In this document: piece after piece, positions 283 through 15,268 of the stretch
Numbering within the stretch: position 1 is the first letter of the stretch
How the letters are laid out: the number at the start of each line of letters is the position of its first letter
Made by a program: the position numbers and the translations under genes
Origin: an uncultured archaeon
GTDB taxonomy: Archaea; Asgardarchaeota; Lokiarchaeia; Sigyniarchaeales; SOKP01
Length of the DNA: 27,919 nucleotides
NCBI GenBank assembly: GCA_964447495.1
Contig: CAYUTF010000029.1
Location: 1 to 27,919 of the forward strand
Direction: 5' to 3'
Notes under the pieces: model-generated
The model's database searches: none
Told to the model about the DNA's origin: nothing
The model's input: only the letters and a program-made list of their open reading frames with translations

Positions 283-1431
283 CTAATAAAAAGGATTATG
301 ATATTGTGGTTTTTCTTCTGATTCAACGAACTTTTCTTTAATTTCTTTATCGATCAAACCCTCGATTTGGCATAAATATTCATATTCCTCTTTTAAACAG
401 AGAGTAATAGCGACACCTTTCTTGTTCATTCTTGAAGTTCTACCGATCCTATGCACATAATTTTCTGGATACATCGGAATATCATAATTAATTACATGCG
501 ATATATCTTCTATATCCAATCCACGTGCAGCGACATCTGTAGCAATAAGCATATTAATCTTATTATCCCTAAATTCCTTCAAAATTGTTTCTCGTTGAAG
601 CTGAGATAAATCTCCAGAAATCTCACCAGCATCATAATGCTTATATTTTAAACTTTTCATTTTTCTGGACAACCATGAAGCAGTTTTCTTGGTATTAGTG
701 AAAACAAGTGCTCTTGTAGGTTTCTCATATTGTAAAATTTTCAGAAATGTTTTGAATTTATTACGAAATCCATCAATTAAGTAATAATACTGCCTTGTAT
801 TTCTTACAGTTAATTCATCTTTGCTCAAATTGAGAAACTTAAATTGATTATTTGAGTAATTCTTAACCAATTCTCTAAATTCATAATGCATAGTAGCTGA
901 AAATAATAAGAATTGATAATTGGATTTAATCTGATTAAGAATATATTTTACATCGGGAGCAAATCCCATATCCCATAGACGATCTGCTTCATCTAAAACA
1001 ACAAATTTAACATTTTTTAGGCGAAGTTTTTTTCTTTTATAGAGATCGATGATCCTACCAGGAGTTCCGATAATTATATTTAGTCCATTTTCTAGTTTGC
1101 GGATCTGGTTATTAATTGAAACGCCACCATAGATTGGATATGCTTTTATCCCATGATTTCCAATATCCTTAAAAACACTATAAATTTGTTTAGCCAATTC
1201 CCTGGTTGGAACTAAAATTAATACTTCATTTTCAAGTTTTTGTACTTTTTCGATTATTGGTAAGATAAAAGCCAACGTCTTACCCGATCCTGTCTTAGCT
1301 TGCGCCATTACATGATTATTATCTAATATTAAAGGTATAGATTTCTGTTGGACAGGAGTAGGGTTTACTATATTTAATTTTTTCATTGCATTAATGCTAC
1401 TTTCACTAATGCCTAATTCTTTAAAATTCAA
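283..1431 (-). CDS. DEAD-box ATP-dependent RNA helicase (core only)
   Basis: Q motif (PTPVQ), AKTGSGKT, PTRELA, GG, TPGRI, DEAD, SAT, ARGLD and HRIGRT all present. TTG start. Confidence 0.97.
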   Translation of the reverse strand: MNFKELGISESSINAMKKLNIVNPTPVQQKSIPLILDNNHVMAQAKTGSGKTLAFILPIIEKVQKLENEVLILVPTRELAKQIYSVFKDIGNHGIKAYPIYGGVSINNQIRKLENGLNIIIGTPGRIIDLYKRKKLRLKNVKFVVLDEADRLWDMGFAPDVKYILNQIKSNYQFLLFSATMHYEFRELVKNYSNNQFKFLNLSKDELTVRNTRQYYYLIDGFRNKFKTFLKILQYEKPTRALVFTNTKKTASWLSRKMKSLKYKHYDAGEISGDLSQLQRETILKEFRDNKINMLIATDVAARGLDIEDISHVINYDIPMYPENYVHRIGRTSRMNKKGVAITLCLKEEYEYLCQIEGLIDKEIKEKFVESEEKPQYHNPFY

Positions 1432-1596: not shown

Positions 1597-3750
1597 TTAA
1601 GCGACCAGAATACGATTAAAAAAGTTATCCAGTTTAGCTAATTTAGTATTGATTATAATTCTCACTTTCTCTGAATTAATCTTAGGATTATTTAATACCA
1701 AATCCTGTACAATAAAATGATACTTCTTCCCTTTTTTTGCTAAAATTCGGTGAATTTCGTTATTTTCATTATATAAGGGAATAGGGAATGAAAAGGGTCT
1801 TTTATGAATATGCCTACTGGATTTAATGATTGCTATATTTCGTGATAACTCTGGAGTATTTAAAATTGCAGATAAATAATAGGCTTCTTCTTGAGAATCA
1901 GTTGAGTAATAATAATTATCTGAACCAATAATTATATTCTTTTTAGAGTTAATTAGTACAGAAGCCTTTAATTTTGAACCACTGGCATTATACACGACAA
2001 TATACTTTTTATTATTAGCCTGTTTGGACATCTTATTCCAATAATTTATGTTTGCGATAAGGGAATCTATCTTACTTGCAGCTTTCTTTTTGGCTTTATA
2101 AACACGATTCATTTCATTATAGAATTTTAAAGCTTTAGGAAATGATTCAAAATATTTCTGGTCAAATTTAAAATCCTTGGTAATTGGTAAAAACACGTTT
2201 CTTTTCTTTTTTATATAAAAGGGAATTAAATCCTTGTTTAAAAAAGTCTTATATCGAAACTGAGGCTCGATTTCTTTATTTGAAAACAAATGATACCAAT
2301 TCTTTTTTGAACGCTTTACTACTTCTTGATCAGAAGAAATAGATAGAGTATTCTCTAGTTTCTGATTAACTTCAAAAAAGACTAGGGTTCGAGGAACCAA
2401 TGTGGCCCCTTGGAAAAATTTATCTTTATACTCACTTTCTCTCATTTCATTTAAAAATTTTAAATCTTGTTCTGGTAAGATGATTTTTACTCCCTCTTCA
2501 TCAATATTGAAGCTATCATAAAAAATTTCTTCTGTAACATGGAGATTTTGATCTAATAATTTAGTTTTAATGGGATATTTTTCAGATATAGGAATTTTAT
2601 TCTTAGTACCAATAAACTCCGCTTTCAAACAAATATGATTGACATTAAAAACATAATTTTTGGGAAAGTCCCATATTTCTAAATTATTAAATATTGGAAA
2701 TAATCGAAATTTATAACAATGATCTCCGTTGAGAACACTTTTAGTCATGACGAAAAATATGGAACCCCCAATTTTTAAGAACTTTGAAGGTATAGCATAG
2801 AAGAAAATTGAAGCTAATTCAATGTGTGTTATATATTGACTTGTTGGTTTTATTTTCAAGGTATCGGATAAATTCCGTATCTTATTTTGATAGTTCTTAT
2901 CGTTTAAATCTTTATAGGTAAGCCAAGGAGGATTTCCAATAACTAAATCAAATGTATTGTTAATCTTTTTTAAATTAAAAGAATTGTTATTAATTAGATT
3001 CTCTGGAAATAATGAATCTATTAAAATAATTGAATTATTTAAATAATGAATATCAAATGAGTCTATAGTATCGTGTATCATAAAAGCTAGGTTAACCTTA
3101 GATGATAAAACTGCCAAAGGATTAATATCAAACCCATACACATTTTTTATCGCCTCTATTTTAGAATCAATGTCGCCCTTTGAATTCAAAATTATGCGAA
3201 TAATCTCAATTAGAAATGTTCCAGAACCACATGATGGATCTAAGATTTTTGAACCATACTTATATAAACTTTCAACCATTTTTTTCGCAAGATTTGGAAA
3301 TGTATAAAACTCACCAATCTTATGCCTTGTTATCATAAAAAAAATTTGTTGATATAGCTCTTGAAATAAGTCTTCTTTTTTTAAATTAATATCCAAGATT
3401 TTATTATTGAAATCTTTTAATAAGGTTGGACTTAATTTTGTCCAATTATAAATCTCAAATTCGCCAAAAATAGTTGTTTTTGGTGAAATAACCATATTGA
3501 GTTTATTTATAACAAATAATTCTAGAAGTAAAGCAAAATAGGTATGCTTTAAGAAAAGCTGAATATTAGCATCTTTACCATAAATATTATGAAAAAAAAG
3601 GTTCCATAAATCATACTTCTCTTGGAACTCCTTCTTATCTTTCTTAACTTCATTTTCAAGAAAGGAAAGAGACTTTTGGAAGAAGCTTGAGTTTAACCCA
3701 AATAACATTCCAATATCTTTAGATGTGATTACTTTTTTGTTCTCGACCAT
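1597..3750 (-). CDS. N6-adenine DNA methyltransferase (gamma class, Type IIG/Eco57I-like MTase-TRD), no evident nuclease domain
   Basis: GEFYT motif X, ILDPSCGSGTFL motif I, YGFDINP, FDLVIGNPPW motif IV, N-terminal helical segment LFLKHTYFALL, and a C-terminal TRD-like region (YYLSAILNT). Confidence 0.9.
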   Translation of the reverse strand: MVENKKVITSKDIGMLFGLNSSFFQKSLSFLENEVKKDKKEFQEKYDLWNLFFHNIYGKDANIQLFLKHTYFALLLELFVINKLNMVISPKTTIFGEFEIYNWTKLSPTLLKDFNNKILDINLKKEDLFQELYQQIFFMITRHKIGEFYTFPNLAKKMVESLYKYGSKILDPSCGSGTFLIEIIRIILNSKGDIDSKIEAIKNVYGFDINPLAVLSSKVNLAFMIHDTIDSFDIHYLNNSIILIDSLFPENLINNNSFNLKKINNTFDLVIGNPPWLTYKDLNDKNYQNKIRNLSDTLKIKPTSQYITHIELASIFFYAIPSKFLKIGGSIFFVMTKSVLNGDHCYKFRLFPIFNNLEIWDFPKNYVFNVNHICLKAEFIGTKNKIPISEKYPIKTKLLDQNLHVTEEIFYDSFNIDEEGVKIILPEQDLKFLNEMRESEYKDKFFQGATLVPRTLVFFEVNQKLENTLSISSDQEVVKRSKKNWYHLFSNKEIEPQFRYKTFLNKDLIPFYIKKKRNVFLPITKDFKFDQKYFESFPKALKFYNEMNRVYKAKKKAASKIDSLIANINYWNKMSKQANNKKYIVVYNASGSKLKASVLINSKKNIIIGSDNYYYSTDSQEEAYYLSAILNTPELSRNIAIIKSSRHIHKRPFSFPIPLYNENNEIHRILAKKGKKYHFIVQDLVLNNPKINSEKVRIIINTKLAKLDNFFNRILVA

Positions 3751-3895: not shown

Positions 3896-4441
3896 TCAGA
3901 CCTTTTTAGGTCTCATGAAGGATGGAAGCATTAAATTAAAAATCTCTGCTAATTTTCTTAATTGAGCAGGTTCTCTAATAATAGTGACGATAAGTATTGA
4001 TTTTTCTAAAGCTTCCTTGTCTAATGCGCCCCCGGAATAAATTGCTTCGTTAAAATTGAAAACTAATAAATATCTTACATTTGGATTATTAATGATTTTA
4101 ATTCCCGGAGTTGATTTAAGATCGTCATAAATTTCTTGGAATTCTCTGGTAATTGCCCCCCGATCATTAGTAATTATTAAGACAGCTATTCCTTTCTTGG
4201 TTAAATTTCTCAATTCAGTCGCATAAAACTTATCTATATGAGGACTTACAATATTTAGTTGATCTTTTGTAGAATAAATTATACTCATTAGATGGTCATT
4301 AAGTATATTTTTTCTGTCAGGTCCTCCAGAAGATTCTATGCTTGTCATACCAACTAATGAGAGAACTTTTTCTTCTAAACTTTCTACTTGCTGTTTAAGC
4401 CTTTGATTCTCCACTCGGAGTTCAATTATTCTATCTGACAT
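3896..4441 (-). CDS. coiled-coil + phospholipase D-fold protein with degenerate HKD motif
   Basis: N-terminal heptads (IIELRVENQRLKQQVESLEEKVLSL). PLD-like strands LNIVSPHID, KKGIAVLIIT and EAIYSGGAL. The expected HxKxxxxD position reads VRYLLVFN. Confidence 0.6.
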   Translation of the reverse strand: MSDRIIELRVENQRLKQQVESLEEKVLSLVGMTSIESSGGPDRKNILNDHLMSIIYSTKDQLNIVSPHIDKFYATELRNLTKKGIAVLIITNDRGAITREFQEIYDDLKSTPGIKIINNPNVRYLLVFNFNEAIYSGGALDKEALEKSILIVTIIREPAQLRKLAEIFNLMLPSFMRPKKV

Positions 4442-4526
4442 TTTTATTCAATATATCTTTAATTTTGCATTTATATGGTTATATAATTACTTTTAAATAA
4501 ATTTTTATACTTCAATTACTTAATTC

Positions 4527-7109
4527 CTATTCTACCTTTTTCCATGGTTTCCCATATAAAGTATAACTCGAAATCGCCAAAGAACTTTGGACGTCAATAC
4601 TCATTATACCATCTTCAACAGTTAAATCTTTAGCTTTTTTCAAGGCAAGTTCAGTCAATTTGTTTGCCATACATATTTGACGTGCTTTAAGCAGTGACAC
4701 CCCTTGGCCATAATCCATAAATATATGATCATAGAAATTCTTTGTCAATTCTTTGGTCTCCTCATCAAAAATAGGATAATTATGAGAGATGATGCCAATA
4801 ATATATTCATAATCAAATTTTTCGGCAATATCACCAAAAATTCTTACTACATTGTTCAATTTCTTTCCAACTACATCAAAAAGTTGGGAATTAATAAATA
4901 ATAAGGGTGGTATTTTATGAGGATTTATTTTGATAGCGTTATTTATATCGGATATTGTTACAATTTCATTATCGTTAGTTAATAAGAAACTATTACTTGG
5001 ATTCCATTTAGAATAAAATATATTGCCAACGAGATGAATAATATGATATGCTCCTTGAGATATATGAGTTAAAATCTGTTCTCGGGTAGAATTATAATTA
5101 GATAATATTGTCATTTCATTAACTTCATCTCTATTATTAAAAAAATCCGTGATAAATTTCATTTCTGACAACCCTGCAGCAAATGGAAATATCAATTCTT
5201 TAGATTTAGTTTCCTCATTCCATTTCAAAGGTCCACTGGAATTCATTGAATCGATGATTAAAATATTATATCTTTTATTCGTCTCTCTATTTTGGCTACT
5301 TTCCTCTAAACGGTCAAAACTTATCCCTCCAAGGGAAGGTTCTCCGATAATATATCCGATTGAATACTTTAATAAGAAAAAGTTATTATCATAGACAAGT
5401 TCGAATGGAATAGTCATCTGATCTAAAATAAAATTGATTTCAGGAATCATATTCAATGCTTTTATTTCAAACGTTTTCAAAATTTTCCTTATGGTATTTG
5501 GCAGAAATAAATATAATATTCTCCCAAAATCGGTTAAGGATATTTCATACTCTTTCTTTTTATCGGAAAAAATATCACTATAAATGTCAATTATTTGCAT
5601 ATCATTCCAAAATTCATCTTTAATTCTGCCTTCTAAAATTTCACCAGTATTTGAGATCATTCGGTAAGAAATTAATCCTTTTGAATTAATCCGAAATATT
5701 ATTTGCTTAATAACAAAATTTTCATTTAGTAACTCAGCACTGGGCGTTACAACTTCAAATGAGTAAATTTCTCGCTCCAATGCCTTAGTTTCATTATAAA
5801 ATGTCTCTGGATCCGGAATCATGGAAACTATATTTTTGTCAAGATAAGAAACTAATTTTCGTGCCAATTCAAAATTTTGTTCTTCATAAATCGCCCTATA
5901 AAAGATCATTCTCCAGAAATCTTTTTGATCTAAAGAAAAAAATAACGATTTGAATTGCCATAAGAAATTACACGTGTAAAAGTAATGGTAAATCTGGGCA
6001 TTAGTTTGGGGTGATTTTAAATGAGTATCCAGTTTTTCCAAAGACTGTAATAGGAATTTTTTCTCTTTCATATCTACAAATTTCTTACACGCCTCAACCC
6101 ACAACTCAATGAGGATATTATCATATCCCAGATCAGTTTTATATAGGAATAAATCCTCCAAAAAATCGTAAATTTCAAAGGCTATTTCAAATTTATTTCT
6201 ATTTATTGAAAAATTGATGTATTTTCGTATATAAGTCACAGCATCGCCATATGATTGAAATTTTTGAATTTTCGAAAACATATTTTTAACAATAATTATA
6301 ATCCATGAGAATTCACCGATATAATTCAAATAGGAAACAAGGATTTCTAGATCTTCAATAATACTATTATATGTATTTTCATTTATAATGATTTTATTTA
6401 AATTTGTGAACTCACTTTTTAAATATCCCGGGATTCTATGTGATAAGATTTTTGCCATTTCTTTAATAAATTCATCGGGATCAGCAGTAAGTTGATAATT
6501 GATATTAATATTTTCTAATATAACGTATAAGAATAGAGCTCTTTTTGAGGGATCTAACTTAAATAAGATTTTGCCTAAAACCTCCATACTATTATAAAAA
6601 TATTCTTGTGGAATAACAGACTTTCTGAGATACATTAATAAAATCTGCAGTTCTACTAACTTTAAATGCTCCCCTCTTTCAATAACCTTAACACAATAAG
6701 AATTTATGAACCTTGTAATTCCTCTTGGGGATAAATTCTCCATTTCTATAAACGTCTTTAACAGATTGGTGGCAAAATTATTAAAGAGATAAAAGTCATC
6801 CAGTTTTGATAAAAACGAAAAGAAGCGCTTATATGCATCTATATATCGTATGATATCCACATCTATCTCATCATCTGTTCTCTTTATCAGAGAATTAATA
6901 TACATCCACCATGAGTTTGAAATTATCATTACTAATTGATGCTTTTTCTGAATATCTAACCATTCTGTCTTTTCGATATCAAAATAGAGATCGGTTAAAA
7001 GCCGATCCGCCCATCGATGATTTGCTGTCTGTAGTAATCTTCTGCCTTGAATGATTCTTTTTTGAAAATCTTCTAAAAACTTTTTTTTGGTAATTGCTTT
7101 GACTGACAT
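4527..7109 (-). CDS. helical-repeat (TPR-like) + CHAT-domain protein, probable pseudoprotease
   Basis: CHAT hallmarks: FGRILYLFLP, FILDQMTIPFELV, NSTREQILTHI, YHIIHLVGN, LLFINSQ, NFYDHIF...GVSLLKAR and terminal YTLYGKP. About 440 aa of all-helical-looking N-terminus. Confidence 0.75.
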   Translation of the reverse strand: MSVKAITKKKFLEDFQKRIIQGRRLLQTANHRWADRLLTDLYFDIEKTEWLDIQKKHQLVMIISNSWWMYINSLIKRTDDEIDVDIIRYIDAYKRFFSFLSKLDDFYLFNNFATNLLKTFIEMENLSPRGITRFINSYCVKVIERGEHLKLVELQILLMYLRKSVIPQEYFYNSMEVLGKILFKLDPSKRALFLYVILENININYQLTADPDEFIKEMAKILSHRIPGYLKSEFTNLNKIIINENTYNSIIEDLEILVSYLNYIGEFSWIIIIVKNMFSKIQKFQSYGDAVTYIRKYINFSINRNKFEIAFEIYDFLEDLFLYKTDLGYDNILIELWVEACKKFVDMKEKKFLLQSLEKLDTHLKSPQTNAQIYHYFYTCNFLWQFKSLFFSLDQKDFWRMIFYRAIYEEQNFELARKLVSYLDKNIVSMIPDPETFYNETKALEREIYSFEVVTPSAELLNENFVIKQIIFRINSKGLISYRMISNTGEILEGRIKDEFWNDMQIIDIYSDIFSDKKKEYEISLTDFGRILYLFLPNTIRKILKTFEIKALNMIPEINFILDQMTIPFELVYDNNFFLLKYSIGYIIGEPSLGGISFDRLEESSQNRETNKRYNILIIDSMNSSGPLKWNEETKSKELIFPFAAGLSEMKFITDFFNNRDEVNEMTILSNYNSTREQILTHISQGAYHIIHLVGNIFYSKWNPSNSFLLTNDNEIVTISDINNAIKINPHKIPPLLFINSQLFDVVGKKLNNVVRIFGDIAEKFDYEYIIGIISHNYPIFDEETKELTKNFYDHIFMDYGQGVSLLKARQICMANKLTELALKKAKDLTVEDGIMSIDVQSSLAISSYTLYGKPWKKVE

Positions 7110-7119
7110 GATTTTTTAT

Positions 7120-8307
7120 CTAAGATTCGTTTTCTAATTCATTCTTCTTTTCAGAAACTATATGTGGATTATCAATCCAACCCTTCTTTAATTGGTCCTT
7201 GGCAAATAATACTGAAGCTCCAATCCAAGAAAGATGTTCCCTTCCAGATGCTGCAACCACTTTAATCTTGTCTCTTAATTTCTCAGAGAAATAACTCTGA
7301 AGTTCACTCTGTAATCGCTCACCTAACCCTTGGATTAAGCTTCCACCACCAGATAAAATAATATTTGAAACTAGTTCTTGCCAATTTTCGCGCTCCCAAG
7401 TCTTTACAACCTTAGAAATCGCCTCAGCAAGACTAAAATAATCTACGTGAATCATTCTAGGATTGAATAATGGTTCAGATACTAAAAACCGTTCTTGATT
7501 AATCTTTAAATTAGTTCCATCTGGTAAATCAATTATACGATCATATTTTGTTAAGCCTTCTTTGACTCTTTTTTTTTCTTCTTCACAATTTAGTATGCAT
7601 AAGGACAATTTTTCTTTAATTTCCTTTGCAATAATGGAATCAAGGTAAAAATTTTTTCCACTTCCAATTTTCGATAAAATTAAGTTGAGAATATGATCAC
7701 TTAATTCTTTTCCAGCAATAGGAAATAGATCACGTGCCATAATGTTCGTAAACCCATGAAATATACTAGAAATGTAGGTATATGATTCTCCTAAATTCAC
7801 AATCACTCCACTAGATTTTTGCAATGTAGATAAAATTGCTTGACTTTCTGAGAGAAATAGTATAGAAGGAAAGTGGTATATATCAAAAAATATTTCTTGA
7901 AGCTTTGACTTTCCTAAATCTGAGATATAAAAGGGGGTTAAAATTATCAATGGTTGCTTAAAATGATATTCTTCTGGTATATTAAGTTGAGAATAATAAT
8001 GAAGAAAAAATTTGGAAAGAACATTATAGTTATTTTCTTTTATAAACTCATGCATTCTTAGTATGTTTTGATATTTTAAAGCTGCGTGTCCTACGAGATG
8101 GACTTGATCAGTATCTCCAAGATAGATATCTTCTAACCCATCAATTACGTCTGAAGTGAATAAATAATCAGAAATGTCTACATATACTGTGGGTGCAATA
8201 ATATCGGGAAAATCATCTAAAGCCCATCCCATTCTAAAAGTATTACTCCCAATATCCAATATTAATGGTCGCTTATAATCATTTTTAACAGAAGCCATGA
8301 ATCTCAT
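7120..8307 (-). CDS. divergent actin-family protein (Asgard actin-related protein)
   Basis: Colinear with actin throughout: LILDIGSNTFRMGWALDDFP (phosphate 1), SGVIVNLGES (phosphate 2), IAGKELSDHI, KEIKEKL, LPDG...INQERF...EPLFNP, NIILSGGGSLIQGLGERLQSEL, REHLSWIGASVL. Confidence 0.93.
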   Translation of the reverse strand: MRFMASVKNDYKRPLILDIGSNTFRMGWALDDFPDIIAPTVYVDISDYLFTSDVIDGLEDIYLGDTDQVHLVGHAALKYQNILRMHEFIKENNYNVLSKFFLHYYSQLNIPEEYHFKQPLIILTPFYISDLGKSKLQEIFFDIYHFPSILFLSESQAILSTLQKSSGVIVNLGESYTYISSIFHGFTNIMARDLFPIAGKELSDHILNLILSKIGSGKNFYLDSIIAKEIKEKLSLCILNCEEEKKRVKEGLTKYDRIIDLPDGTNLKINQERFLVSEPLFNPRMIHVDYFSLAEAISKVVKTWERENWQELVSNIILSGGGSLIQGLGERLQSELQSYFSEKLRDKIKVVAASGREHLSWIGASVLFAKDQLKKGWIDNPHIVSEKKNELENES

Positions 8308-8329
8308 TAACCCTATATATTAATATACC

Positions 8330-8342
8330 TACTTAAATAACT
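8330..8342 (-). promoter_or_regulatory. possible TATA box for a leaderless actin-CHAT transcript
   Basis: Minus strand TTATTTAAG lies about 25 nt upstream of the actin ATG at 8307. The AT-rich background makes this weak. Confidence 0.3.
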
Positions 8343-8446
8343 GCAATAATAGTACTTCAAAAACGCTATCTGTTTATATCTATCCATAAAAGAAGTATTA
8401 TTTATATTTGAGCAGAAAAAAGAGAAGACCATGTTAGAAGATTTTT

Positions 8447-9190
8447 CTACGGAAGAAAACTATTTTCATGAACAAATTCATCTGTTAACCGTTTTAATTG
8501 ATATTCTTTCACTTGCAATTCTAACAAACCTAATACTCTTTTAAATTCGCTAGACATCGATTCTATATCTATTTCTGAAATCAATTCTACTTGATCTCTT
8601 TTTACTTTAAATTGTTCCAAATGTATTTGAATTTTTTCATGCATATTATTAATGGAAGAAACTAAATCCTCCGTATTTTTCTTAGTAATCTTCCTCATTT
8701 TCCTAAGAATTGATAATATTGAAGATACGGAATTTTCCCATCGTTCATAACGATCTGAATATCCTGAAATCATCTCCTCAAAAAATACTGCTAATTTTTC
8801 ATAAATTCCCCCTTTTTTTGAAAATGAAGGTTCCTTTTTAGTTGAAGGTGCCTTTATTTCTTCTGGTTTTTCCTCTTTAATTTCAACTTGCGCATTGTCC
8901 ATCTGTTGAGTTAGTTGTGTTCGATTTTTTAATGGTTCTCTTTCAGACAAGGGAACTGCTTCCATCATATAATCTTCCGCAATTTTTTTTTTGCTCTCAT
9001 AAGAAAGTTGAGGCTCAATCTTCTTTTCTTCTTTTTGAATAGAAATGTATCCTTTTTCCTCAGAAAAACCTTCTAATATCCCTTGAAGGTCTGATTTAGC
9101 AGATTTTGATGATTTCAAGGCAGCATCTAAAGTGTATTGAGGAGCCTCCTCACTTTCTTTTTGCTTATCTTTCTTCTTTTTTTTAGCCAT
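8447..9190 (-). CDS. hypothetical protein: Lys/Glu-rich disordered N-half, helical coiled-coil C-half
   Basis: MAKKKKKDKQKE start, low-complexity E/K region, then about 115 aa of amphipathic heptad helices. Starts 35 nt after the AbrB-ACT stop codon. Confidence 0.7.
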   Translation of the reverse strand: MAKKKKKDKQKESEEAPQYTLDAALKSSKSAKSDLQGILEGFSEEKGYISIQKEEKKIEPQLSYESKKKIAEDYMMEAVPLSEREPLKNRTQLTQQMDNAQVEIKEEKPEEIKAPSTKKEPSFSKKGGIYEKLAVFFEEMISGYSDRYERWENSVSSILSILRKMRKITKKNTEDLVSSINNMHEKIQIHLEQFKVKRDQVELISEIDIESMSSEFKRVLGLLELQVKEYQLKRLTDEFVHENSFLP

Positions 9191-9225
9191 AAAACTTCAA
9201 TGTTTTTAATTTTGAATCTAATTCA

Positions 9226-9630
9226 TTATTCCAGCGAAAGTACTTCAACTTTTATAGCATTTCCTTCCTTCATTAACTTCTGCTTCAATTCATCGATCGA
9301 AAAATCAGGGCTTTCCGAGATTACAGTCCATACCGCAGTTTTATCCTTCTCAACTATTACTGCTTCACTATATATCATACTTAACCCATAATCACCAAAC
9401 ATCGAAGCTAATTTAGCTAATGCGCCAGGTATATCTGCCATAGTGATTTTAAGTTTAATCGGAACCTTTTCATCGCCCAACCCTATAGGAGATATTCGTA
9501 TTTCCTTGGTTTCCGAGTCACTCACCATCATAAGCTGAGAATTGGTAGTAAGCCCAAGACTTTTTCGAATGATCTGAGGAATTACAATCCGTCCTCGGTT
9601 ATCAATGGTGAGAATTTTAATTTCTTTCAT
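9226..9630 (-). CDS. AbrB/MazE/SpoVT-family DNA-binding domain fused to ACT domain
   Basis: TIDNRGRIVIPQIIRKSLGL (AbrB signature) followed by ITMADIPGALAKLASMFGDYGLSM (ACT signature). Confidence 0.9.
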   Translation of the reverse strand: MKEIKILTIDNRGRIVIPQIIRKSLGLTTNSQLMMVSDSETKEIRISPIGLGDEKVPIKLKITMADIPGALAKLASMFGDYGLSMIYSEAVIVEKDKTAVWTVISESPDFSIDELKQKLMKEGNAIKVEVLSLE

Positions 9631-9840
9631 CTAAATTCTTTCTTTCATATTTCTTTTGCTTATAATTATTATTAAATTGCATATATAAAAATTTTATATT
9701 TCTCTCTTCTCTGAAATCTACTTTTTTCTTAAAGATTCATACTAATTTAAAGATTTATATAGAATTAGGATTATTTAGATTTAATCAAAATTCAAATTAA
9801 TAATTGCTTAAATTATTTGAATAATAAAGAGAAAAAGAAA

Positions 9841-12066
9841 TTATTCCTTATGTGCTTTGAGCTTTACTGTTAAATCGCGTGCTCTCTTAGAATACCAGAT
9901 CAAAAGCTCACCAGCATCTTCAGGCTTGAAATACTCGCCACCGCATAATTGTGCTGCGCGGGTCATTAACTCATCATCAGGGTTTCCCAAACCAACTATA
10001 TATATTACGACATTTGGGTTATCTGCGAACATTTTTATTGCTTTAAAGAAATCGTCTCCATCGGTTGGAACACCATCGGTAAGAAGGATTATCATAGATG
10101 GTTGATTTGGACTAATTCTATTAAACTCTGTAAGAACTTGATATGCCTTTACCATAGCTTGTCCCATATTCGTAGATTGGCCATACGCATTTCCTATACG
10201 ATCTACAATTAAACGAGCAGCTTCTTCAAGAACACCTTTTTTACCGCTAGCAGAATCCATATAGTAGCCTTCTTGAAACGGTAATATTTGAGCTTCATCG
10301 GCAAACCGTATAACGGACACTTTCTCACCAAATCCACGGCCAACTTTTTCACTTAGAAAGAGCACTGCTGCAAATGCCGCAGAAATTCTCCGCGGAATAT
10401 TGATACCTGCTTTAAAATTCTTTAGGAATTCTTGAATTTCTCGTGATTCCATTGCCGCTTTGATACCTTCTATAGCGGGAGCGATGTTGGTCACAAACAC
10501 ATCACGTGCCATCATCGAGCGGCTTATATCTATGATGAGAATTGCGTTAAATGGTATTAATCCTGTTGGTGTAAGATTTATTGTCGTATTCTCGGTGATT
10601 TGTGCGAGAATATCCCCTGTTAAATCGGGTGTTGTATTTAGAATTGAGCAAGCGATATTTACCGCATTCCATCGTAATTTGATTCCTTTGAAGATAATAT
10701 AATTCGAAAGCCATCCTTTCAATGAATCAACGTTCTGTCGCGCAGTGCTGATAATTTCCCACATATTTTCTCCCGAAATCGGATTAATTCCTAAAGACAC
10801 ACTTTGAAGGGGAATGATTGGTCGTAAGTTTTTATACACTTTTACTTCAAAACTACCAATACCAGAGGCTTCTAAAATCTCACTATCAATAATGATGGTA
10901 TTATTTGGAGCAGATTCAAGAATCTCTGCTTTAGCAGCACCGATTGCACCAGTAAGCTCATCTTCAAAAGCAAGTACATCATCTTGGTTAATCGAGAGCG
11001 TATATTGGGTACGTGGACTCACTAAACAATAACCTAGCAAATTTGGTTGCGACTGCACTTCCAGCATCATTTCAGAAGCTTTTTGAATGGGTGGTTCAGT
11101 TGAATAGACTACAATTTGTTGAGCTTGTATGTTTGTATCTTGTTTCGTATCGCGGCTCATTCTGATCTCAGTAGGGTTAATTAGAGCTTGGCTGACTCGA
11201 GCTGATCCTACTGATCGTGTGAGTGGATCCTCCCATGCTACAAGCAATCCAGGAGCAAGTCCTAATTGCTGAATTACAGTGCTACTGAGCTGAATCTTGC
11301 CACCTTCAATACCATTATCTACAATGGGATTTAAAATAATCCCTCCTTTTTGATTTTGAAGGGTATATATATCAATTTGATTTGAATAAGGTGTAGGTGA
11401 TGGAGCTTCTATCCCCATATCTTGACCTGGCATAGGTGGGACTTGTTGAGGAGGTGGTGTTGGAACCATTTGAGGCTGAGGTGTGGGTGAAGGTGGTCGA
11501 GGCATAGGAGTGACTTGTGGAATAGAGGCTTGGGTGGGTTTTGGTGCTGGTGGAGGCGTAGGCTGCGGCATTGGAGGCTGAAAAGGTTGAGATATAGGTG
11601 TTGGCTGAGTTGCTGGTTCGGGAGGTATTTGGGGAAGTGGTGCTGCTCTTGGTTGGGGCATGGGCCTAGAAGGTGCCATCTGAGGTGGAGGAGTAGGTAA
11701 AGGCGTTAAAGATGAATCTGTAGCAGAGCGAACTTGAGGCTGAGGTACTGGAACAGGGCGAGGTGATGGAACCTTTGGAATTTGAAGTTTAGGTGGAGCT
11801 AATCCAGTACTACTGACTGGACGAAGGATCAATTCTACTCCCGAAAATTCTAAGGCGTCCACAATATTCTTTGAGATTTGAGCAGCAAAATCTAACACCA
11901 TATTTGAAATTTCTACAACAGCATTAATTTTTTTAGCATTATCAGGATTTTCGACCTCAATGGAAGTGCCATTTGAAACATGTAATTTCGTTGCATTTTC
12001 TTGGCAGATTACTACTTTATTTGTAGAGCTTTCACTTACATCGACAAATATTTTTAATTCACTCAT
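9841..12066 (-). CDS. multidomain protein: Cdc48-N-like double-psi barrel, proline-rich linker, two more barrels + Cdc48 Nc-like subdomain, C-terminal vWA domain
   Basis: vWA MIDAS motif intact (AILIIDISRSM, STNMGQAM, IILLTDG, YIVGLG, CGGEYF). Three similar segments resemble the Cdc48/VAT N-terminal barrel (VVICQENATKLHVSNG, IQLSSTVIQQLGLAPG, CLVSPRTQYTLSINQD). About 140 aa P/Q-rich tract. Confidence 0.8.
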   Translation of the reverse strand: MSELKIFVDVSESSTNKVVICQENATKLHVSNGTSIEVENPDNAKKINAVVEISNMVLDFAAQISKNIVDALEFSGVELILRPVSSTGLAPPKLQIPKVPSPRPVPVPQPQVRSATDSSLTPLPTPPPQMAPSRPMPQPRAAPLPQIPPEPATQPTPISQPFQPPMPQPTPPPAPKPTQASIPQVTPMPRPPSPTPQPQMVPTPPPQQVPPMPGQDMGIEAPSPTPYSNQIDIYTLQNQKGGIILNPIVDNGIEGGKIQLSSTVIQQLGLAPGLLVAWEDPLTRSVGSARVSQALINPTEIRMSRDTKQDTNIQAQQIVVYSTEPPIQKASEMMLEVQSQPNLLGYCLVSPRTQYTLSINQDDVLAFEDELTGAIGAAKAEILESAPNNTIIIDSEILEASGIGSFEVKVYKNLRPIIPLQSVSLGINPISGENMWEIISTARQNVDSLKGWLSNYIIFKGIKLRWNAVNIACSILNTTPDLTGDILAQITENTTINLTPTGLIPFNAILIIDISRSMMARDVFVTNIAPAIEGIKAAMESREIQEFLKNFKAGINIPRRISAAFAAVLFLSEKVGRGFGEKVSVIRFADEAQILPFQEGYYMDSASGKKGVLEEAARLIVDRIGNAYGQSTNMGQAMVKAYQVLTEFNRISPNQPSMIILLTDGVPTDGDDFFKAIKMFADNPNVVIYIVGLGNPDDELMTRAAQLCGGEYFKPEDAGELLIWYSKRARDLTVKLKAHKE

Positions 12067-12107
12067 ATTTCATCTCCTAATTATTTTTCTTAATTTTTAT
12101 CTACATT

Positions 12108-12497
12108 TTATCTAATAGGATAACGCACACCTATCTCTTTGGCATAATAGCGAAATACAGATACAATTTTCCCTAAATCTTCGGTTTTTCTGCTTGCCCC
12201 CATCAGAAAAAAGCGTCCTGCGGCACTCAGAATAATAAATGCATTATCTCCTCTTAATACTACTTCAAGTAAATTAAGATATCCTAATGCATCAATAGAA
12301 TCTTGACCACTCTGCATTACAACAGCACTTAGGCTGGAGAATAAATCGGGGTCCACATCATAATCTGGTATGCATGAAAATGCAAGTCGCAAGCCATCAC
12401 GTGTTACAAGAGCAAGAGCCTCGAGTTCTGTGTGCTCTGTGATGTTTCCAAGAAAATTTGATAGACTATGGGCTTCCTCTGGGGTTAGATCACTCAT
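12108..12497 (-). CDS. roadblock/LC7 (MglB-like) domain protein
   Basis: Helix, then LEALALVTRDGLRLA, DPDLFSSLSA helix, LLEVVLRGDNAFIILSAAG, and DLGKI terminal helix. Typical roadblock pattern, 129 aa. Confidence 0.88.
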   Translation of the reverse strand: MSDLTPEEAHSLSNFLGNITEHTELEALALVTRDGLRLAFSCIPDYDVDPDLFSSLSAVVMQSGQDSIDALGYLNLLEVVLRGDNAFIILSAAGRFFLMGASRKTEDLGKIVSVFRYYAKEIGVRYPIR

Positions 12498-12684
12498 AAA
12501 GATTTCAGAATTTGCTATTTGATAATGAAAATTTTTATTTAATTAATAATAAATAAAAGTTTCATGCTTAAAAATTTATATTTCAACAATGATTTAACTG
12601 TATTGGGAGAGTAAAAGATCTTGAAATAAAATAATGCTTTAGATAAAGAGTAATAAATGAGGGTACTACCTAAAAAAGTATTAG

Positions 12685-13542
12685 TTATTTTCCCTCTAAT
12701 TGAGTTTTTATTTGATCTTTTAAAATTTCTTTTTTCGATTTATATTCGATTTTGGCATCGGTTGGTTGTCCAATACGTTTTAAAAATTCTATTGCTAGAA
12801 TTTTACCATTTTCTGACAAAATCCGTGGAGAATAATCTTCAGCAAAATAAATTCCTTCAGGGACAGAACCGACTTTAGATATTTCTTTGGTGACTTGTTT
12901 TTCTCCTAAAAAGGTTTGCACTTTTTCAACTACAGAATAAGCATGATTTCCAATAATTATTAACTCTCTCTCGAAACCATCAGGCATTTTAATTTCTTCT
13001 AACTTCTGCATGATCTCTTCAAAATTTATATGCGTTTGATCTTGCATTAAAGTTGAAAATGACTCATCTCCTCGGTATAACGGACCAGTATTTTGAGAAA
13101 TTCTATCTTTACTTCCCGCAATATTCATTCCTGCTGCTGGTTCTGGAATTCCAAAAGGATCTTTTTCCCTAAGAGGGTGCACGGCAGGAACAGGAGGGCC
13201 TTTAGGTTTTGCAGGTGCTTCATGAGCTTTAATTTCTTTTGCAATACCGCTTTCTGTTTTTCCACCTATTAATTTAATAAAATCGGGGTCTTCATCTCCC
13301 TCATCTTGGGGGACAACTGCGTAATGCATTCCAACCTGACCTCTAATTTCTTGGCTTCTTTTGGCTCCAATAAATTTAGATCTCACGTTACTTTCCAAAC
13401 CTTTCCAAAGAAAAACCTTTCTTAACTCATCAGCGACGAGTACATAGCATTCATCACTTTTTAATACATCTTTAATAGAACCTTCTGAAAACACTTCTGT
13501 GGTCGTTCCATCTGGATTAATAAGAAAAACTTGATTTCCCAT
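12685..13542 (-). CDS. single gelsolin-domain protein with Pro-rich linker and C-terminal domain of unknown function
   Basis: LKSDECYVL...KVFLWKGLES...QDEGDEDPDFIKLIGG matches the gelsolin repeat consensus (L.S.DCFIL..IYVW.G..S...EG.E...F). Confidence 0.9.
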   Translation of the reverse strand: MGNQVFLINPDGTTTEVFSEGSIKDVLKSDECYVLVADELRKVFLWKGLESNVRSKFIGAKRSQEIRGQVGMHYAVVPQDEGDEDPDFIKLIGGKTESGIAKEIKAHEAPAKPKGPPVPAVHPLREKDPFGIPEPAAGMNIAGSKDRISQNTGPLYRGDESFSTLMQDQTHINFEEIMQKLEEIKMPDGFERELIIIGNHAYSVVEKVQTFLGEKQVTKEISKVGSVPEGIYFAEDYSPRILSENGKILAIEFLKRIGQPTDAKIEYKSKKEILKDQIKTQLEGK

Positions 13543-13696: not shown

Positions 13697-15268
13697 TTAA
13701 TAATTTTTTAGCTCTAAAAGGCTGTTATTGATATTTTGAATCATATCAAGTGCTGTAAAGCGAAGTCCAAGATTTTCTTTGCAGTATTCTCCAATATATC
13801 CATTTAAGAAGGCAGCAGAGCATGCAGATTGAAATGGATTATTACCTATCGTTAAAAAGCAACCACACAACCCCGCTAGAACATCACCTGTTCCTCCTAT
13901 TGACATTTCAGGACAACCTGTCTTGTTAATCTTCAAATATTTCCCGTTGCTTATATAATCATATGGTCCTTTCACAAGAAGAGTAAGCGATAATTTCTTT
14001 GCTACTTCATGCACGATTTTACCTGTTTCTTGAATTTTAGAATAATCTGGTAGATCGATATCTGTCATGATCTTAAATTCTCCATGATGGGGAGTTAGTA
14101 TCACATTCTTACCTTTTATTAAATCAAAATGATTTTTGATAAGTTTTAATCCATCAGCATCAATAACCAGGGATTTTTCTTTATTTTTCCAATTACTTAG
14201 TAAATCAAGAAATAATTTTTCCGTTTCTTTATTCGTTCCCATCCCCGGACCAATAACCACAGTATTAGCCCATTCAGTTAACTCTAATATTTCTGATTCA
14301 GCATCTAAATTTAACCAATCTCCCGCACTTGTTCTTACAATCATGTTTGGAGAGTAACTCCGCAATACATTTCCAATGACATCTGGAGTATATGTAATAA
14401 CCAAATCACATCCAAAGTTGATCCCTGTAAGGGAAGAATATGCTGGAGCTCCTGAGTAATTTTTAGATCCTCCGATTACTAAAAGTCTCCCAAATTGTCC
14501 TTTATGATTATCAATTTTCCTAACTTTTAAGCACGGGAGTAAATCACCCTTTCCGACAAATAGATGCGCTTCTTGTGGTATTCCTATGGATGTAACGACT
14601 ATCTCTTTGATATATTTACTTTTTTTTTCCATTCCTTTCTTTTGGCGATGGAACGTTATAACTAAATCAGATATTATTGTTTTATGCGAGACTCTCCCCG
14701 TATTTGGATCAAAACCTGAAGGAACATCAATTGAGACAATTTTTAATCGATCAGGCCACACTTCTTTTAGATCATTTATTAAGTCAATAGTAGATGAGAT
14801 TGGCTCCCGAATTTGTCCCTTTATCCCAGTCCCTAATAACCCATCTATGATCAAATTGTAGCTATCATCATTCTCGAGAATTAATTTAATATTAGGCAAT
14901 TCACTGGAATCAGTAATAACCTCAGTTAGAATTGAGTAATTCAAATTATTATGGATAATATCCCAATTAAGTTGTGCTTCTGGAGTTCGTATCTTATCCG
15001 GACTTCCAACTAAGATAACGAGAATCTGAAATCCATATGCGGATAGATGTCTTGCAATGACAAAACCATCCCCCCCATTATTACCAGTTCCACAAAAGAT
15101 GGCAATTTTGAAATTTTGTTTGACAAATCCTTTTGAAATGAGTTCTGATGTAAATGAATATCCTGCACATTCCATTAAATGACTTTTTGGAATTCCAAGC
15201 CATTCCGAATTATTGTCTAATATAGCCATCTCTTCTGAAGTTATTCCTTTTGAATTAAAATCTTCCAT
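13697..15268 (-). CDS. nnr: bifunctional NAD(P)H-hydrate epimerase/dehydratase (NnrE-NnrD)
   Basis: LMECAG, CGTGNNGGDG, IIDGLLGTG and SIDVPSG (YjeF_N domain). HKGQFG, GPGMG, VIDADG, ILTPHHGE and GGTGDVLAG (dehydratase domain). Confidence 0.96.
   Translation of the reverse strand: MEDFNSKGITSEEMAILDNNSEWLGIPKSHLMECAGYSFTSELISKGFVKQNFKIAIFCGTGNNGGDGFVIARHLSAYGFQILVILVGSPDKIRTPEAQLNWDIIHNNLNYSILTEVITDSSELPNIKLILENDDSYNLIIDGLLGTGIKGQIREPISSTIDLINDLKEVWPDRLKIVSIDVPSGFDPNTGRVSHKTIISDLVITFHRQKKGMEKKSKYIKEIVVTSIGIPQEAHLFVGKGDLLPCLKVRKIDNHKGQFGRLLVIGGSKNYSGAPAYSSLTGINFGCDLVITYTPDVIGNVLRSYSPNMIVRTSAGDWLNLDAESEILELTEWANTVVIGPGMGTNKETEKLFLDLLSNWKNKEKSLVIDADGLKLIKNHFDLIKGKNVILTPHHGEFKIMTDIDLPDYSKIQETGKIVHEVAKKLSLTLLVKGPYDYISNGKYLKINKTGCPEMSIGGTGDVLAGLCGCFLTIGNNPFQSACSAAFLNGYIGEYCKENLGLRFTALDMIQNINNSLLELKNY

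Follow-up and report, generated by a model that had tools for sequence, protein, structure and literature searches.

A divergent actin gene with predicted inactive CHAT and PLD partners beside a separate gelsolin-roadblock neighbourhood in a Lokiarchaeial Asgard genome

We analysed a stretch of 27,919 nucleotides (nt) from an uncultured archaeon (GTDB lineage Archaea; Asgardarchaeota; Lokiarchaeia; Sigyniarchaeales; SOKP01; contig CAYUTF010000029.1 of assembly GCA_964447495.1), hereafter the window, in which eight consecutive genes (g1 to g8) encode a gelsolin-domain protein, a roadblock protein, a Pro-rich/VWA protein, a regulator, a putatively helical protein, a divergent actin, a CHAT-domain protein and a phospholipase D (PLD)-like protein. 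Comparison across Asgard genomes divided this run into g1-g3 (Block A) and g4-g8 (Block B). Block B is predicted to be an operon restricted to the window's order, apparently undescribed, that pairs a fast-evolving actin-like protein with an inactive protease-like scaffold. Block A appears to be an old Asgard neighbourhood whose gelsolin-roadblock pairing is not specifically tied to the divergent actin. The whole statement, that the run consists of two units, each conserved independently, which lie next to each other in the window's family only, and that Block B works by the mechanism proposed below, has in our judgement an even chance of being right; the two-block split and both pseudoenzyme predictions are much firmer.

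Conservation of Block B within and between families

Family labels are f1 for the window's family and f2, f3 and f4 for other families of its order. The order helical protein-actin-CHAT-PLD (g5-g6-g7-g8) was conserved well beyond the window's genus. An orthologue of the actin, at 63-73% identity, was present in 20 of 24 same-genus genomes, and the four-gene order held in all 20 of these loci as far as the contigs reach. The whole neighbourhood was collinear in the same-genus loci, including the flanking housekeeping genes, and collinearity within the family therefore tells little about function. The same four genes were collinear in 14/14 loci from other genera of the family, with g4 directly upstream of g5 in 12 of them (displaced in one, at a contig end in another). 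In other families g5, actin, CHAT and PLD were found together in G026 (f3), G039, G038, G036 and G171 at 21-45% identity, and G172 and G035 agreed with this order where contig ends cut the locus. The flanks in these families differed from those of the window and included Hef, a PHP-domain gene and a 405-amino-acid (aa) gene of no known family. The regulator g4 was also directly upstream of g5 in G026 and in G030, and a PHP-domain gene replaced it in the other f2 genomes examined.

Spacing within Block B was tightest between actin and CHAT. Across 16 loci the gap was -31 to 87 nt for actin-CHAT, 40-161 nt for helical protein-actin and 46-123 nt for CHAT-PLD, and in 3/16 loci the actin and CHAT genes overlapped by 4 nt. 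This close or overlapping arrangement suggests translational coupling of the actin and the CHAT protein. As a separate observation, two genomes had the actin and CHAT open reading frames (ORFs) in a single frame split by one stop codon, TAA or TAG (G038:C1:996170-997273, 1268 aa; G017:C28:217164-218330, 1256 aa).

Profile searches found full-length g7 only in the window's order, in 117/134 f1 genomes, 1/1 from f3, 7/14 from f2 and 0/4 from f4. Other families gave matches to the C-terminal CHAT domain only (f5 3/3, f6 2/2, f13 1/31, f21 2/6), and no other module gene was detected beside the seven fetched loci with such matches. The PLD-like protein was distributed more widely than CHAT, occurring in 12/14 f2 genomes, 2/3 from f5, 1/2 from f6 and 2/2 from f7.

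Joint presence and absence of actin and CHAT

Three genomes lacked the actin and CHAT genes together. G032, assembled as a single contig, and G025 (locus L105) had the order Hef-PHP-helical protein-PLD-405-aa gene, which is the G038 context minus actin and CHAT. In G032 (L102:9294-10580) g5 was followed directly by g8 after a gap of 111 nt. G030 (L103:9119-10866) had AbrB/ACT-helical protein-PLD, again without actin and CHAT. Neither a module actin (by actin query) nor a CHAT copy (by profile) was found in the genomes G032, G025 and G030. These loci indicate that actin and CHAT come and go as a pair, and we regard the two genes as an apparent cassette, present or absent together, inside an older helical-protein/PLD pair. 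Seeming co-losses in the same-genus genomes G021, G004 and G013 were discarded as assembly gaps: contigs broke off next to the PLD gene or within it, and G013 retained just a fragment of that gene.

Two further observations concern the genes next to this pair. In f2 genomes the gene that directly follows the PLD-like one encodes a 404-411-aa protein without a Pfam family (L057:13266-14483, L056:694-1929, L102:8047-9261), whether actin and CHAT are there or not; this protein may be part of the older helical-protein/PLD unit. In G030 the pair was followed by a 316-aa ORF with an N-terminus like the gelsolin domain of g1 (tblastn 34%, E 7e-12; no Pfam match).

Divergent actin

Scores against Pfam models are given relative to the curated cut-offs (in bits: Actin 27, Robl_LC7 23, VWA 23.8, CHAT 24, MazE/AbrB 24.7, ACT 27, Gelsolin 21, PLDc_2 27). 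The product of g6 matched Actin (PF00022) at 165.1 bits over residues 12-378, and at 159.6 bits in the genome search, where it was the weakest of four actin-family genes (442, 299, 226 and 160 bits). It was 25% identical to the genome's own lokiactin-like gene product and is not lokiactin: 17 module actins split from three genome paralogues at 100/100 support, in a tree with long branches and three outgroup sequences only. The module actins formed one group whose topology followed families. They were far less conserved than lokiactin, with 29-35% identity between families (88-92% for lokiactin) and ~50% between genera, lokiactin ranging from 88-96% across these comparisons. The best PDB matches of g6 were actins (~125 bits) and Arp1 (~117 bits), so that this PDB search favoured no specific class of actin-related protein (ARP).

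Residues of the nucleotide site were partly kept. Module actins retained the phosphate-1 Asp/Gly, the phosphate-2 Gly and the DIKEK Lys, and f1 had a GGGS adenosine motif. The phosphate-2 Asp was N in f1, S in f3 and D in f2, and the adenosine motif read GNGG in f2. The position that we take to be His161 (rabbit actin numbering) varied among module actins.

TPR-pseudoCHAT protein

The product of g7 passed the cut-off for CHAT (PF12770) at 28.4 bits. Its AlphaFold2 model (predicted local distance difference test, pLDDT, 84.9; predicted template modelling score, pTM, 0.77) consisted of an alpha-solenoid resembling tetratricopeptide repeats (TPR-like, aa 5-446), a small beta unit and an alpha/beta CHAT (caspase-like) domain. 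The top Foldseek matches were the TPR-CHAT protein Csx29 (7zoq, E 1.6e-10), the anti-sigma factor DdvA (8rw5, E 2.8e-9) and human separase (9hms, E 5.3e-8), with SAVED-CHAT (8tl0) and gingipain among the others. TM-scores were low at 0.21-0.25, which we attribute to the comparison of multi-domain proteins whose domains are arranged differently. In a MAFFT alignment, the catalytic His and Cys were both missing from all seven module CHAT proteins and both present in 14/14 generic CHAT proteins. In the module proteins the His of the G-H motif was replaced by N or I, and the Cys of the A-C motif by Q, R, K, V or H. We classify g7 as a predicted pseudoprotease.

Searching the g7 profile against 1.84 billion representatives gave 299 proteins at E 0.001. 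Among the 150 of these 299 matches that were listed, only the highest-scoring ones spanned most of the profile, and those from ~E 1e-15 down covered only positions ~460-860. Among these listed matches the N-terminal solenoid thus appears peculiar to the module family. No relative of g7 was found in viral contigs.

PLD-like protein, helical protein and regulator

The PLD-like protein g8 scored 19.5 bits against PLDc_2 (PF13091) in the window, and its orthologues in G026 and G038 scored 27.5 and 17.6 bits. The g8 profile matched NucT in the PDB (6ehi, E 0.009), and the NCBIfam NucT model gave 17 bits. The HKD motif (HxK(x)4D) was absent, with no invariant His or Lys in 21 orthologues (K109 was nearly invariant), and where NucT has its active-site region the alignment shows NVxYLLVFN. 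We consider g8 a predicted pseudo-enzyme, a candidate PLD fold without the catalytic motif. Its other features were a leucine-zipper-like helix at the N-terminus and, at the C-terminus, the conserved motif LPSFMR. That LPSFMR might dock onto the TPR solenoid or into the actin cleft was considered, but this idea is weakened because the motif was kept without actin and CHAT, and loosely in sister families.

Those sister families of the class had PLD-like homologues at 24-28% identity, with the C-terminal motif loosely kept (L106:3410-7653 in G167, L107:8890-10733 in G169, L109:9192-11338 in G168). The genes there adjoined ones for 366-411-aa coiled-coil proteins with winged-helix-type matches below cut-off (MarR, HTH_24, HTH_IclR, HVO_A0114), and in G167 a gene for a 575-aa Arf/Ras-like GTPase protein also lay beside the PLD-like gene. 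Kinship of g5 with these neighbours was rejected, since hhalign detected none with the 127-aa protein of G167 or the 411-aa protein of G169.

In an alignment of 21 orthologues, g5 begins with a polybasic stretch (MAKKKKK), continues with a low-complexity linker that varies, and has a conserved domain towards its C-terminus (~aa 130-235), which we assume to be helical. Pfam gave only weak matches (E 0.001-0.012, all under cut-off), NCBIfam and PADLOC gave none, and an Atlas search returned only its own cluster. The gene stayed beside the PLD-like gene even without actin and CHAT. The regulator g4 matched MazE_antitoxin at 25.1 bits and ACT at 21 bits (under the cut-off), together with NCBIfam PRK08577 at 85 bits and AbrB TIGR01439 at 29 bits, and is likely a ligand-sensing regulator judging from these domains.

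Gelsolin, roadblock and Pro-rich/VWA genes of Block A

Although g1 stayed under the Pfam Gelsolin cut-off at 15.2 bits, a profile of seven orthologues matched solved Asgard gelsolins over aa 4-95 (Lokiarchaeota 2DGel 7whg, E 1.9e-8; 7c2f, E 2.1e-5; 7c2h, E 3.3e-4), which supports its prediction as a gelsolin-domain protein. The gelsolin domain (~aa 4-95) was N-terminal and was followed by a conserved C-terminal domain of unknown fold. Paralogues of that C-terminal domain (~aa 150-273) were found in ORFs of ~250 aa elsewhere, for example G038:C1:2174601-2174963 and G171:C1:5918791-5919159; some of them matched the gelsolin domain as well, pointing to a small family of proteins that combine gelsolin with this unknown domain. 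The roadblock protein g2 matched Robl_LC7 above cut-off (26.6 bits). The Pro-rich/VWA protein g3 matched VWA (42.3 bits) and VWA_2 (34 bits), and its translation reads as an N-terminal domain, a Pro-rich tract (~aa 90-215), an unassigned middle region and a C-terminal VWA domain.

Block A was found apart from Block B. The g1 family occurred in 274/400 genomes of the phylum, and full-length orthologues at 42-44% identity were present in G038, G171 and G032. In the single-contig genomes G038 and G171, both from a sister family, g1 lay ~315 kb and ~306 kb from Block B, and G032 has g1 without the module actin and CHAT. Loci from other families of the window's order had NnrSD-g1-g2 in 5/5 cases; g3 followed in four (G038, G171, G039 and G032, the last at 24% identity) and was not seen in G026. 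Within the window's family, g3 was lost in G280 and G190, which belong to other genera. Twelve further g1 loci, 10 of them outside the window's order, had a roadblock gene co-directionally after g1 in five cases (f26 twice, f27, f19 and f6) and near g1 on the opposite strand in two; in the remaining five, one of which was a partial match, no roadblock gene was detected near g1. The distance from Block B, the presence without the module actin and the occurrence in many genomes of the phylum are what separate the gelsolin-roadblock pairing from the divergent actin. Block A most likely serves the general lokiactin cytoskeleton.

NnrSD, a gene for NAD(P)HX repair (YjeF_N + Carb_kinase), lay directly before the gelsolin-roadblock pair in the window (12108-13542). 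The same adjacency (L084-L090, L093, L099) was seen in the window's order, co-directionally in f26, f27 and f6, and also in f7. It is an unexpectedly stable position beside cytoskeletal genes for a housekeeping gene.

Boundary between the blocks

Blocks A and B adjoined only in the window's family, in which Block A was usually upstream of Block B at a variable distance. The spacer between g3 and g4 ranged from 143 to 7112 nt in 16 same-genus loci, and in the same-genus genome G007 a gene for a 724-aa GH3 glycosidase lay inside it (L044:5491-7665). We read this spacer as an apparent recurrent insertion point between the blocks. A direct repeat upstream of g4 in the window, TTAAAGATTYATA in two copies (9729-9741 and 9747-9759, 18 nt apart), was rejected as a g4 operator because it was absent from the other 109 fetched loci, and is probably a chance occurrence.

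A preliminary description of this DNA, made from the sequence of the window, had taken all eight genes for one module around the actin and had asked for gene order conserved beyond close relatives. Such conservation was found for helical protein-actin-CHAT-PLD; the eight genes together did not show it, and the run split in two. The claim of a single eight-gene module is not supported: in two genomes assembled as single contigs, gelsolin-roadblock-Pro/VWA lies ~306-315 kb away from the actin module, Block A occurs in a genome without the module actin, and its gelsolin is spread phylum-wide. The same description had envisaged several transcription units, which these results support, and a divergent actin with dedicated structural partners, which stands: actin, TPR-pseudoCHAT, pseudo-PLD and helical protein stay together across families at 21-45% identity.

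Proposed mechanism of Block B and alternatives

We propose that the module actin paralogue would not be a builder of the main cytoskeleton. Together with the TPR-pseudoCHAT scaffold it would form a roughly stoichiometric, non-enzymatic complex, much as eukaryotic ARPs do in scaffolded complexes, and the helical protein and pseudo-PLD would tether this complex to DNA or to membrane lipid, both of them surfaces rich in phosphate. A small molecule may act through the AbrB+ACT protein to control expression. An ARP-like subunit on a scaffold would fit what was observed of the module: the actin and CHAT genes overlap or nearly abut, they are absent together, both catalytic centres are predicted to be lost, and the actin evolves fast. 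The charge of g5 and g8 and the Nuc-like fold suggest binding to DNA or membrane.

Several points weigh against this proposal. The DNA-or-membrane target is a guess from fold and charge alone. Fast evolution and altered catalytic residues are compatible with polymerisation: bacterial ParM-like actins form filaments in spite of their strong divergence. The helical and PLD-like proteins persist without actin and CHAT, so the four products need not be one complex, and LPSFMR is kept in those same genomes and is thus not a docking site dedicated to actin and CHAT. The G170 locus was rearranged, with a CHAT-like ORF cut by the contig end, a helical-protein homologue and an 834-aa ORF (L074:983-7172, C113), and its PLD-like gene was on a separate contig beside the 405-aa gene (L110:9312-9842, C7); the 834-aa ORF was dismissed as a g7 relative, having no similarity to g7 and no Pfam match. 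Since flanking housekeeping genes are collinear within the family too, only comparisons between families are informative, and these rest on ~10 genomes of related, non-independent lineages.

The rival we take most seriously, unlikely as we hold it to be, is a filament system of the crenactin-arcadin or ParMRC type. The actin would polymerise like crenactin with its arcadins or ParM with ParR, and the helical protein, TPR-pseudoCHAT and pseudo-PLD would act as adaptor, nucleator or capper, and anchor, together positioning DNA, a membrane region or cargo. ParMRC is a known prokaryotic actin system of the same operon logic. An actin encoded with small adaptors likewise recalls crenactin and arcadin-2, as described in the accessible part of PMC5173319. 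Nothing is missing from the actin fold, and there is little change at the phosphate-1 Asp/Gly, the phosphate-2 Gly and the Gly of the adenosine motif. DNA could be bound by g5 through its polybasic N-terminus and by g8 through its predicted Nuc-like fold, and the sister-family PLD-like homologue adjoins coiled-coil proteins with putative winged-helix domains. However, the catalytic-site positions vary between families, and an 860-aa partner whose gene lies so close to that of the actin, or overlaps it, points to a 1:1 ratio and not to a polymer in excess. Positions 8250-9900 yielded only short two-copy repeats and no centromere-like array, so that the locus, having no adjacent repeat array, does not qualify as a ParMRC-like type II segregation locus. 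The link to the sister-family proteins is weakened by hhalign, which found no homology between g5 and the coiled-coil and other neighbours there. That the four genes are held together by chance or neutral synteny, without a shared function, we consider very improbable. Prokaryotic gene order can persist among relatives, and all the evidence is comparative and drawn from non-independent lineages; but order and tight spacing survive at 21-45% identity where every flanking gene differs between families, and actin and CHAT are jointly absent from an otherwise identical locus.

Synteny has largely refuted the view that all eight genes form one module in which gelsolin, roadblock and Pro-rich/VWA proteins act on this Arp-like actin, and we now think it improbable. 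Gelsolin domains bind actins, most loci in the family have Block A on the upstream side of Block B, and the G030 pair is followed by the ORF with a g1-like gelsolin N-terminus. Five gelsolin homologues were also enriched by lokiactin co-immunoprecipitation in a cultured Lokiarchaeon, according to the available text of PMC13716822. Against these stand the ~306-315 kb between the blocks in G171 and G038 and the presence of Block A in the actin-less G032, the 274/400 phylum genomes with the g1 family set against an order-restricted module, a spacer of 0.14-7.1 kb that admits unrelated genes, and flanking housekeeping genes that are equally collinear in the family. The least probable explanation in our view is that Block B is a conflict or defence system of a degenerate or unconventional kind. 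Defence systems often contain CHAT proteases and PLD nucleases, the TPR-CHAT arrangement is that of Craspase and g8 has a predicted Nuc/PLD-like fold, a type IIG-like methyltransferase gene lies just downstream, and presence within f2 is patchy. Yet g5, g6 and g7 had no match to 5027 PADLOC models (PADLOC-DB 2.0) and g8 matched only GajB (14 bits, E 0.0034), both catalytic sites are lost in all orthologues examined, the methyltransferase is unlinked outside the family, and no relative occurred in viral contigs. The module is moreover single-copy, with a tree that follows families and identities that track taxonomy.

A bolder version of our proposal makes Block B the first prokaryotic 'ARP complex', in which a non-filament ARP stays permanently bound to a separase/Csx29-like TPR-pseudocaspase scaffold and is joined, on DNA or membrane, to a pseudo-nuclease and a basic helical protein, and makes Block A an ancient phylum-wide unit that regulates lokiactin. 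We advance it tentatively and regard it as doubtful. If true, Lokiarchaeial Asgard archaea would possess a counterpart, whether independent or ancestral, of the scaffolded ARP complexes that are a hallmark of eukaryotic cells (Arp2/3, dynactin, INO80-type remodellers), and the gelsolin-roadblock pair of Block A would link roadblock proteins to the lokiactin cytoskeleton.

Comparison with known systems

The arcade cluster of Thermoproteales holds crenactin with arcadins, which include coiled-coil proteins. It resembles Block B in that an archaeal actin homologue stands beside dedicated lineage-specific partners, and a partner there regulates the actin (PMC5173319, accessible part). In Block B, by contrast, the partners are a TPR-pseudoCHAT and a pseudo-PLD, and the actin is a minor, fast-evolving paralogue beside a conserved lokiactin and not the main actin. 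No family with an arcadin name came up for g5, g7 or g8 in Pfam or NCBIfam, and no comparison with arcadin sequences was made. In eukaryotic ARP complexes (Arp2/3, the Arp1 rod of dynactin, Arp4/Arp8 on the HSA helix of INO80-type remodellers) a divergent actin fold with a variable ATPase site is a structural subunit on a helical scaffold. Block B shares with them a divergent actin fold as a putative scaffold-bound subunit; its complex is a predicted one, and the comparison brought out no homology of subunits.

Like Csx29 of the type III-E CRISPR 'Craspase' and like separase, g7 has an alpha-solenoid followed by a caspase-like domain; unlike them, it is without the catalytic His and Cys (7/7 module proteins), and there were no Cas genes nearby. 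The Nuc/NucT nucleases of the PLD family are similar to g8 in size and in the one-domain PLD-like fold predicted by profile, and g8 differs in the missing HKD motif, the extra N-terminal leucine-zipper-like helix and the C-terminal LPSFMR. In Block A, g1 resembles the solved gelsolins of Loki and Thor (ProGel/2DGel) in its N-terminal domain. Asgard roadblock operons are known that combine a LAMTOR1-like protein, a Rab-like GTPase and DENN; g2 is also a Roadblock/LC7 protein, and Block A has no GTPase or DENN gene.

Asgard archaea have several actin paralogues, and a role is known for lokiactin only. In a cultured Lokiarchaeon, lokiactin is accompanied by three ARP-like homologues that cluster with ARPs; all are transcribed, lokiactin several-fold higher (PMC9834061, available portion). 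Lokiactin co-immunoprecipitation enriched profilin and an ARF GTPase along with the gelsolin homologues, and the main text as available says nothing of ARP, CHAT or roadblock proteins (PMC13716822). One ARP-like paralogue now has defined conserved partners, predicted to be a TPR-pseudoprotease, a pseudo-nuclease and a basic helical protein. The module also occurs in the 6.0-Mb single-contig genome G171 of a sister family, so that relatives with complete genomes could be used experimentally.

Conserved neighbourhoods of Asgard eukaryotic signature protein (ESP) genes that include roadblock proteins have been reported. Most ESP genes lie outside such neighbourhoods, and in the accessible part of that report only the ESCRT and roadblock-Rab-DENN operons are named, the gelsolin-roadblock pairing not being among them (bioRxiv 10.1101/2020.10.19.343400). 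Our results indicate that conserved operons do occur around Asgard cytoskeletal genes, which the same text describes as mostly unclustered, and they allow the phylum-wide gelsolin-roadblock pairing to be separated in annotation from the lineage-specific actin module. A literature search found no description of the actin-CHAT-PLD module or of the gelsolin-roadblock pair; it left aside the supplementary tables of PMC13716822 and 10.1101/2020.10.19.343400, which may hold entries. The single paper found to mention Asgard, the CHAT domain and actin together deals with archaeal extrachromosomal elements.

Locus layout and flanking genes

The eight ORFs of the run occupy positions 3896-13542 consecutively and co-directionally on the minus strand (Table 1). 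The preliminary description had given the gaps from g1 to g8 as 187, 41, 210, 35, 139, 10 and 85 nt, and the ORF coordinates reproduce these values exactly. Its gene identities (gelsolin, roadblock, Pro-rich/VWA, regulator, coiled coil, divergent actin and two pseudoenzymes) are supported, the regulator reading as AbrB+ACT and the coiled coil as a putatively helical protein, and it was right to call both CHAT and PLD dead, the catalytic residues being gone from the alignments of orthologues. Three flanking genes are also on the minus strand, so strand alone sets no limits to the cluster. The remaining genes of the window encode ordinary metabolic and housekeeping proteins.

Table 1 Positions of the genes of Blocks A and B, their boundary and flanking genes in the window.
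Feature	Position	Strand	Length or remark
g1, Block A: gelsolin-domain protein (predicted)	12685-13542	-	285 aa
g2, Block A: Roadblock/LC7 protein	12108-12497	-	129 aa
g3, Block A: Pro-rich/VWA protein	9841-12066	-	741 aa
Block A/Block B boundary	9631-9840	.	210-nt AT-rich spacer, TATA-like stretch upstream of g4
g4, Block B: AbrB/SpoVT-type DNA-binding + ACT	9226-9630	-	134 aa
g5, Block B: polybasic, putatively helical protein, no known family	8447-9190	-	247 aa
g6, Block B: divergent actin-family (ARP-like) protein	7120-8307	-	395 aa
g7, Block B: TPR-like alpha-solenoid + CHAT domain without catalytic residues	4527-7109	-	860 aa
g8, Block B: Nuc/PLD-like protein without HKD motif	3896-4441	-	181 aa
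Flanking NnrSD gene	13697-15268	-	
Flanking type IIG-like methyltransferase	1597-3750	-	
Flanking DEAD helicase	283-1431	-	

The type IIG-like methyltransferase (717 aa, N6-adenine type) matched the PADLOC model REase_MTase_IIG at 115 bits in its methyltransferase part only, and no nuclease domain was detected in it. Its gene was collinear with the module in the window's family and unlinked in other families.

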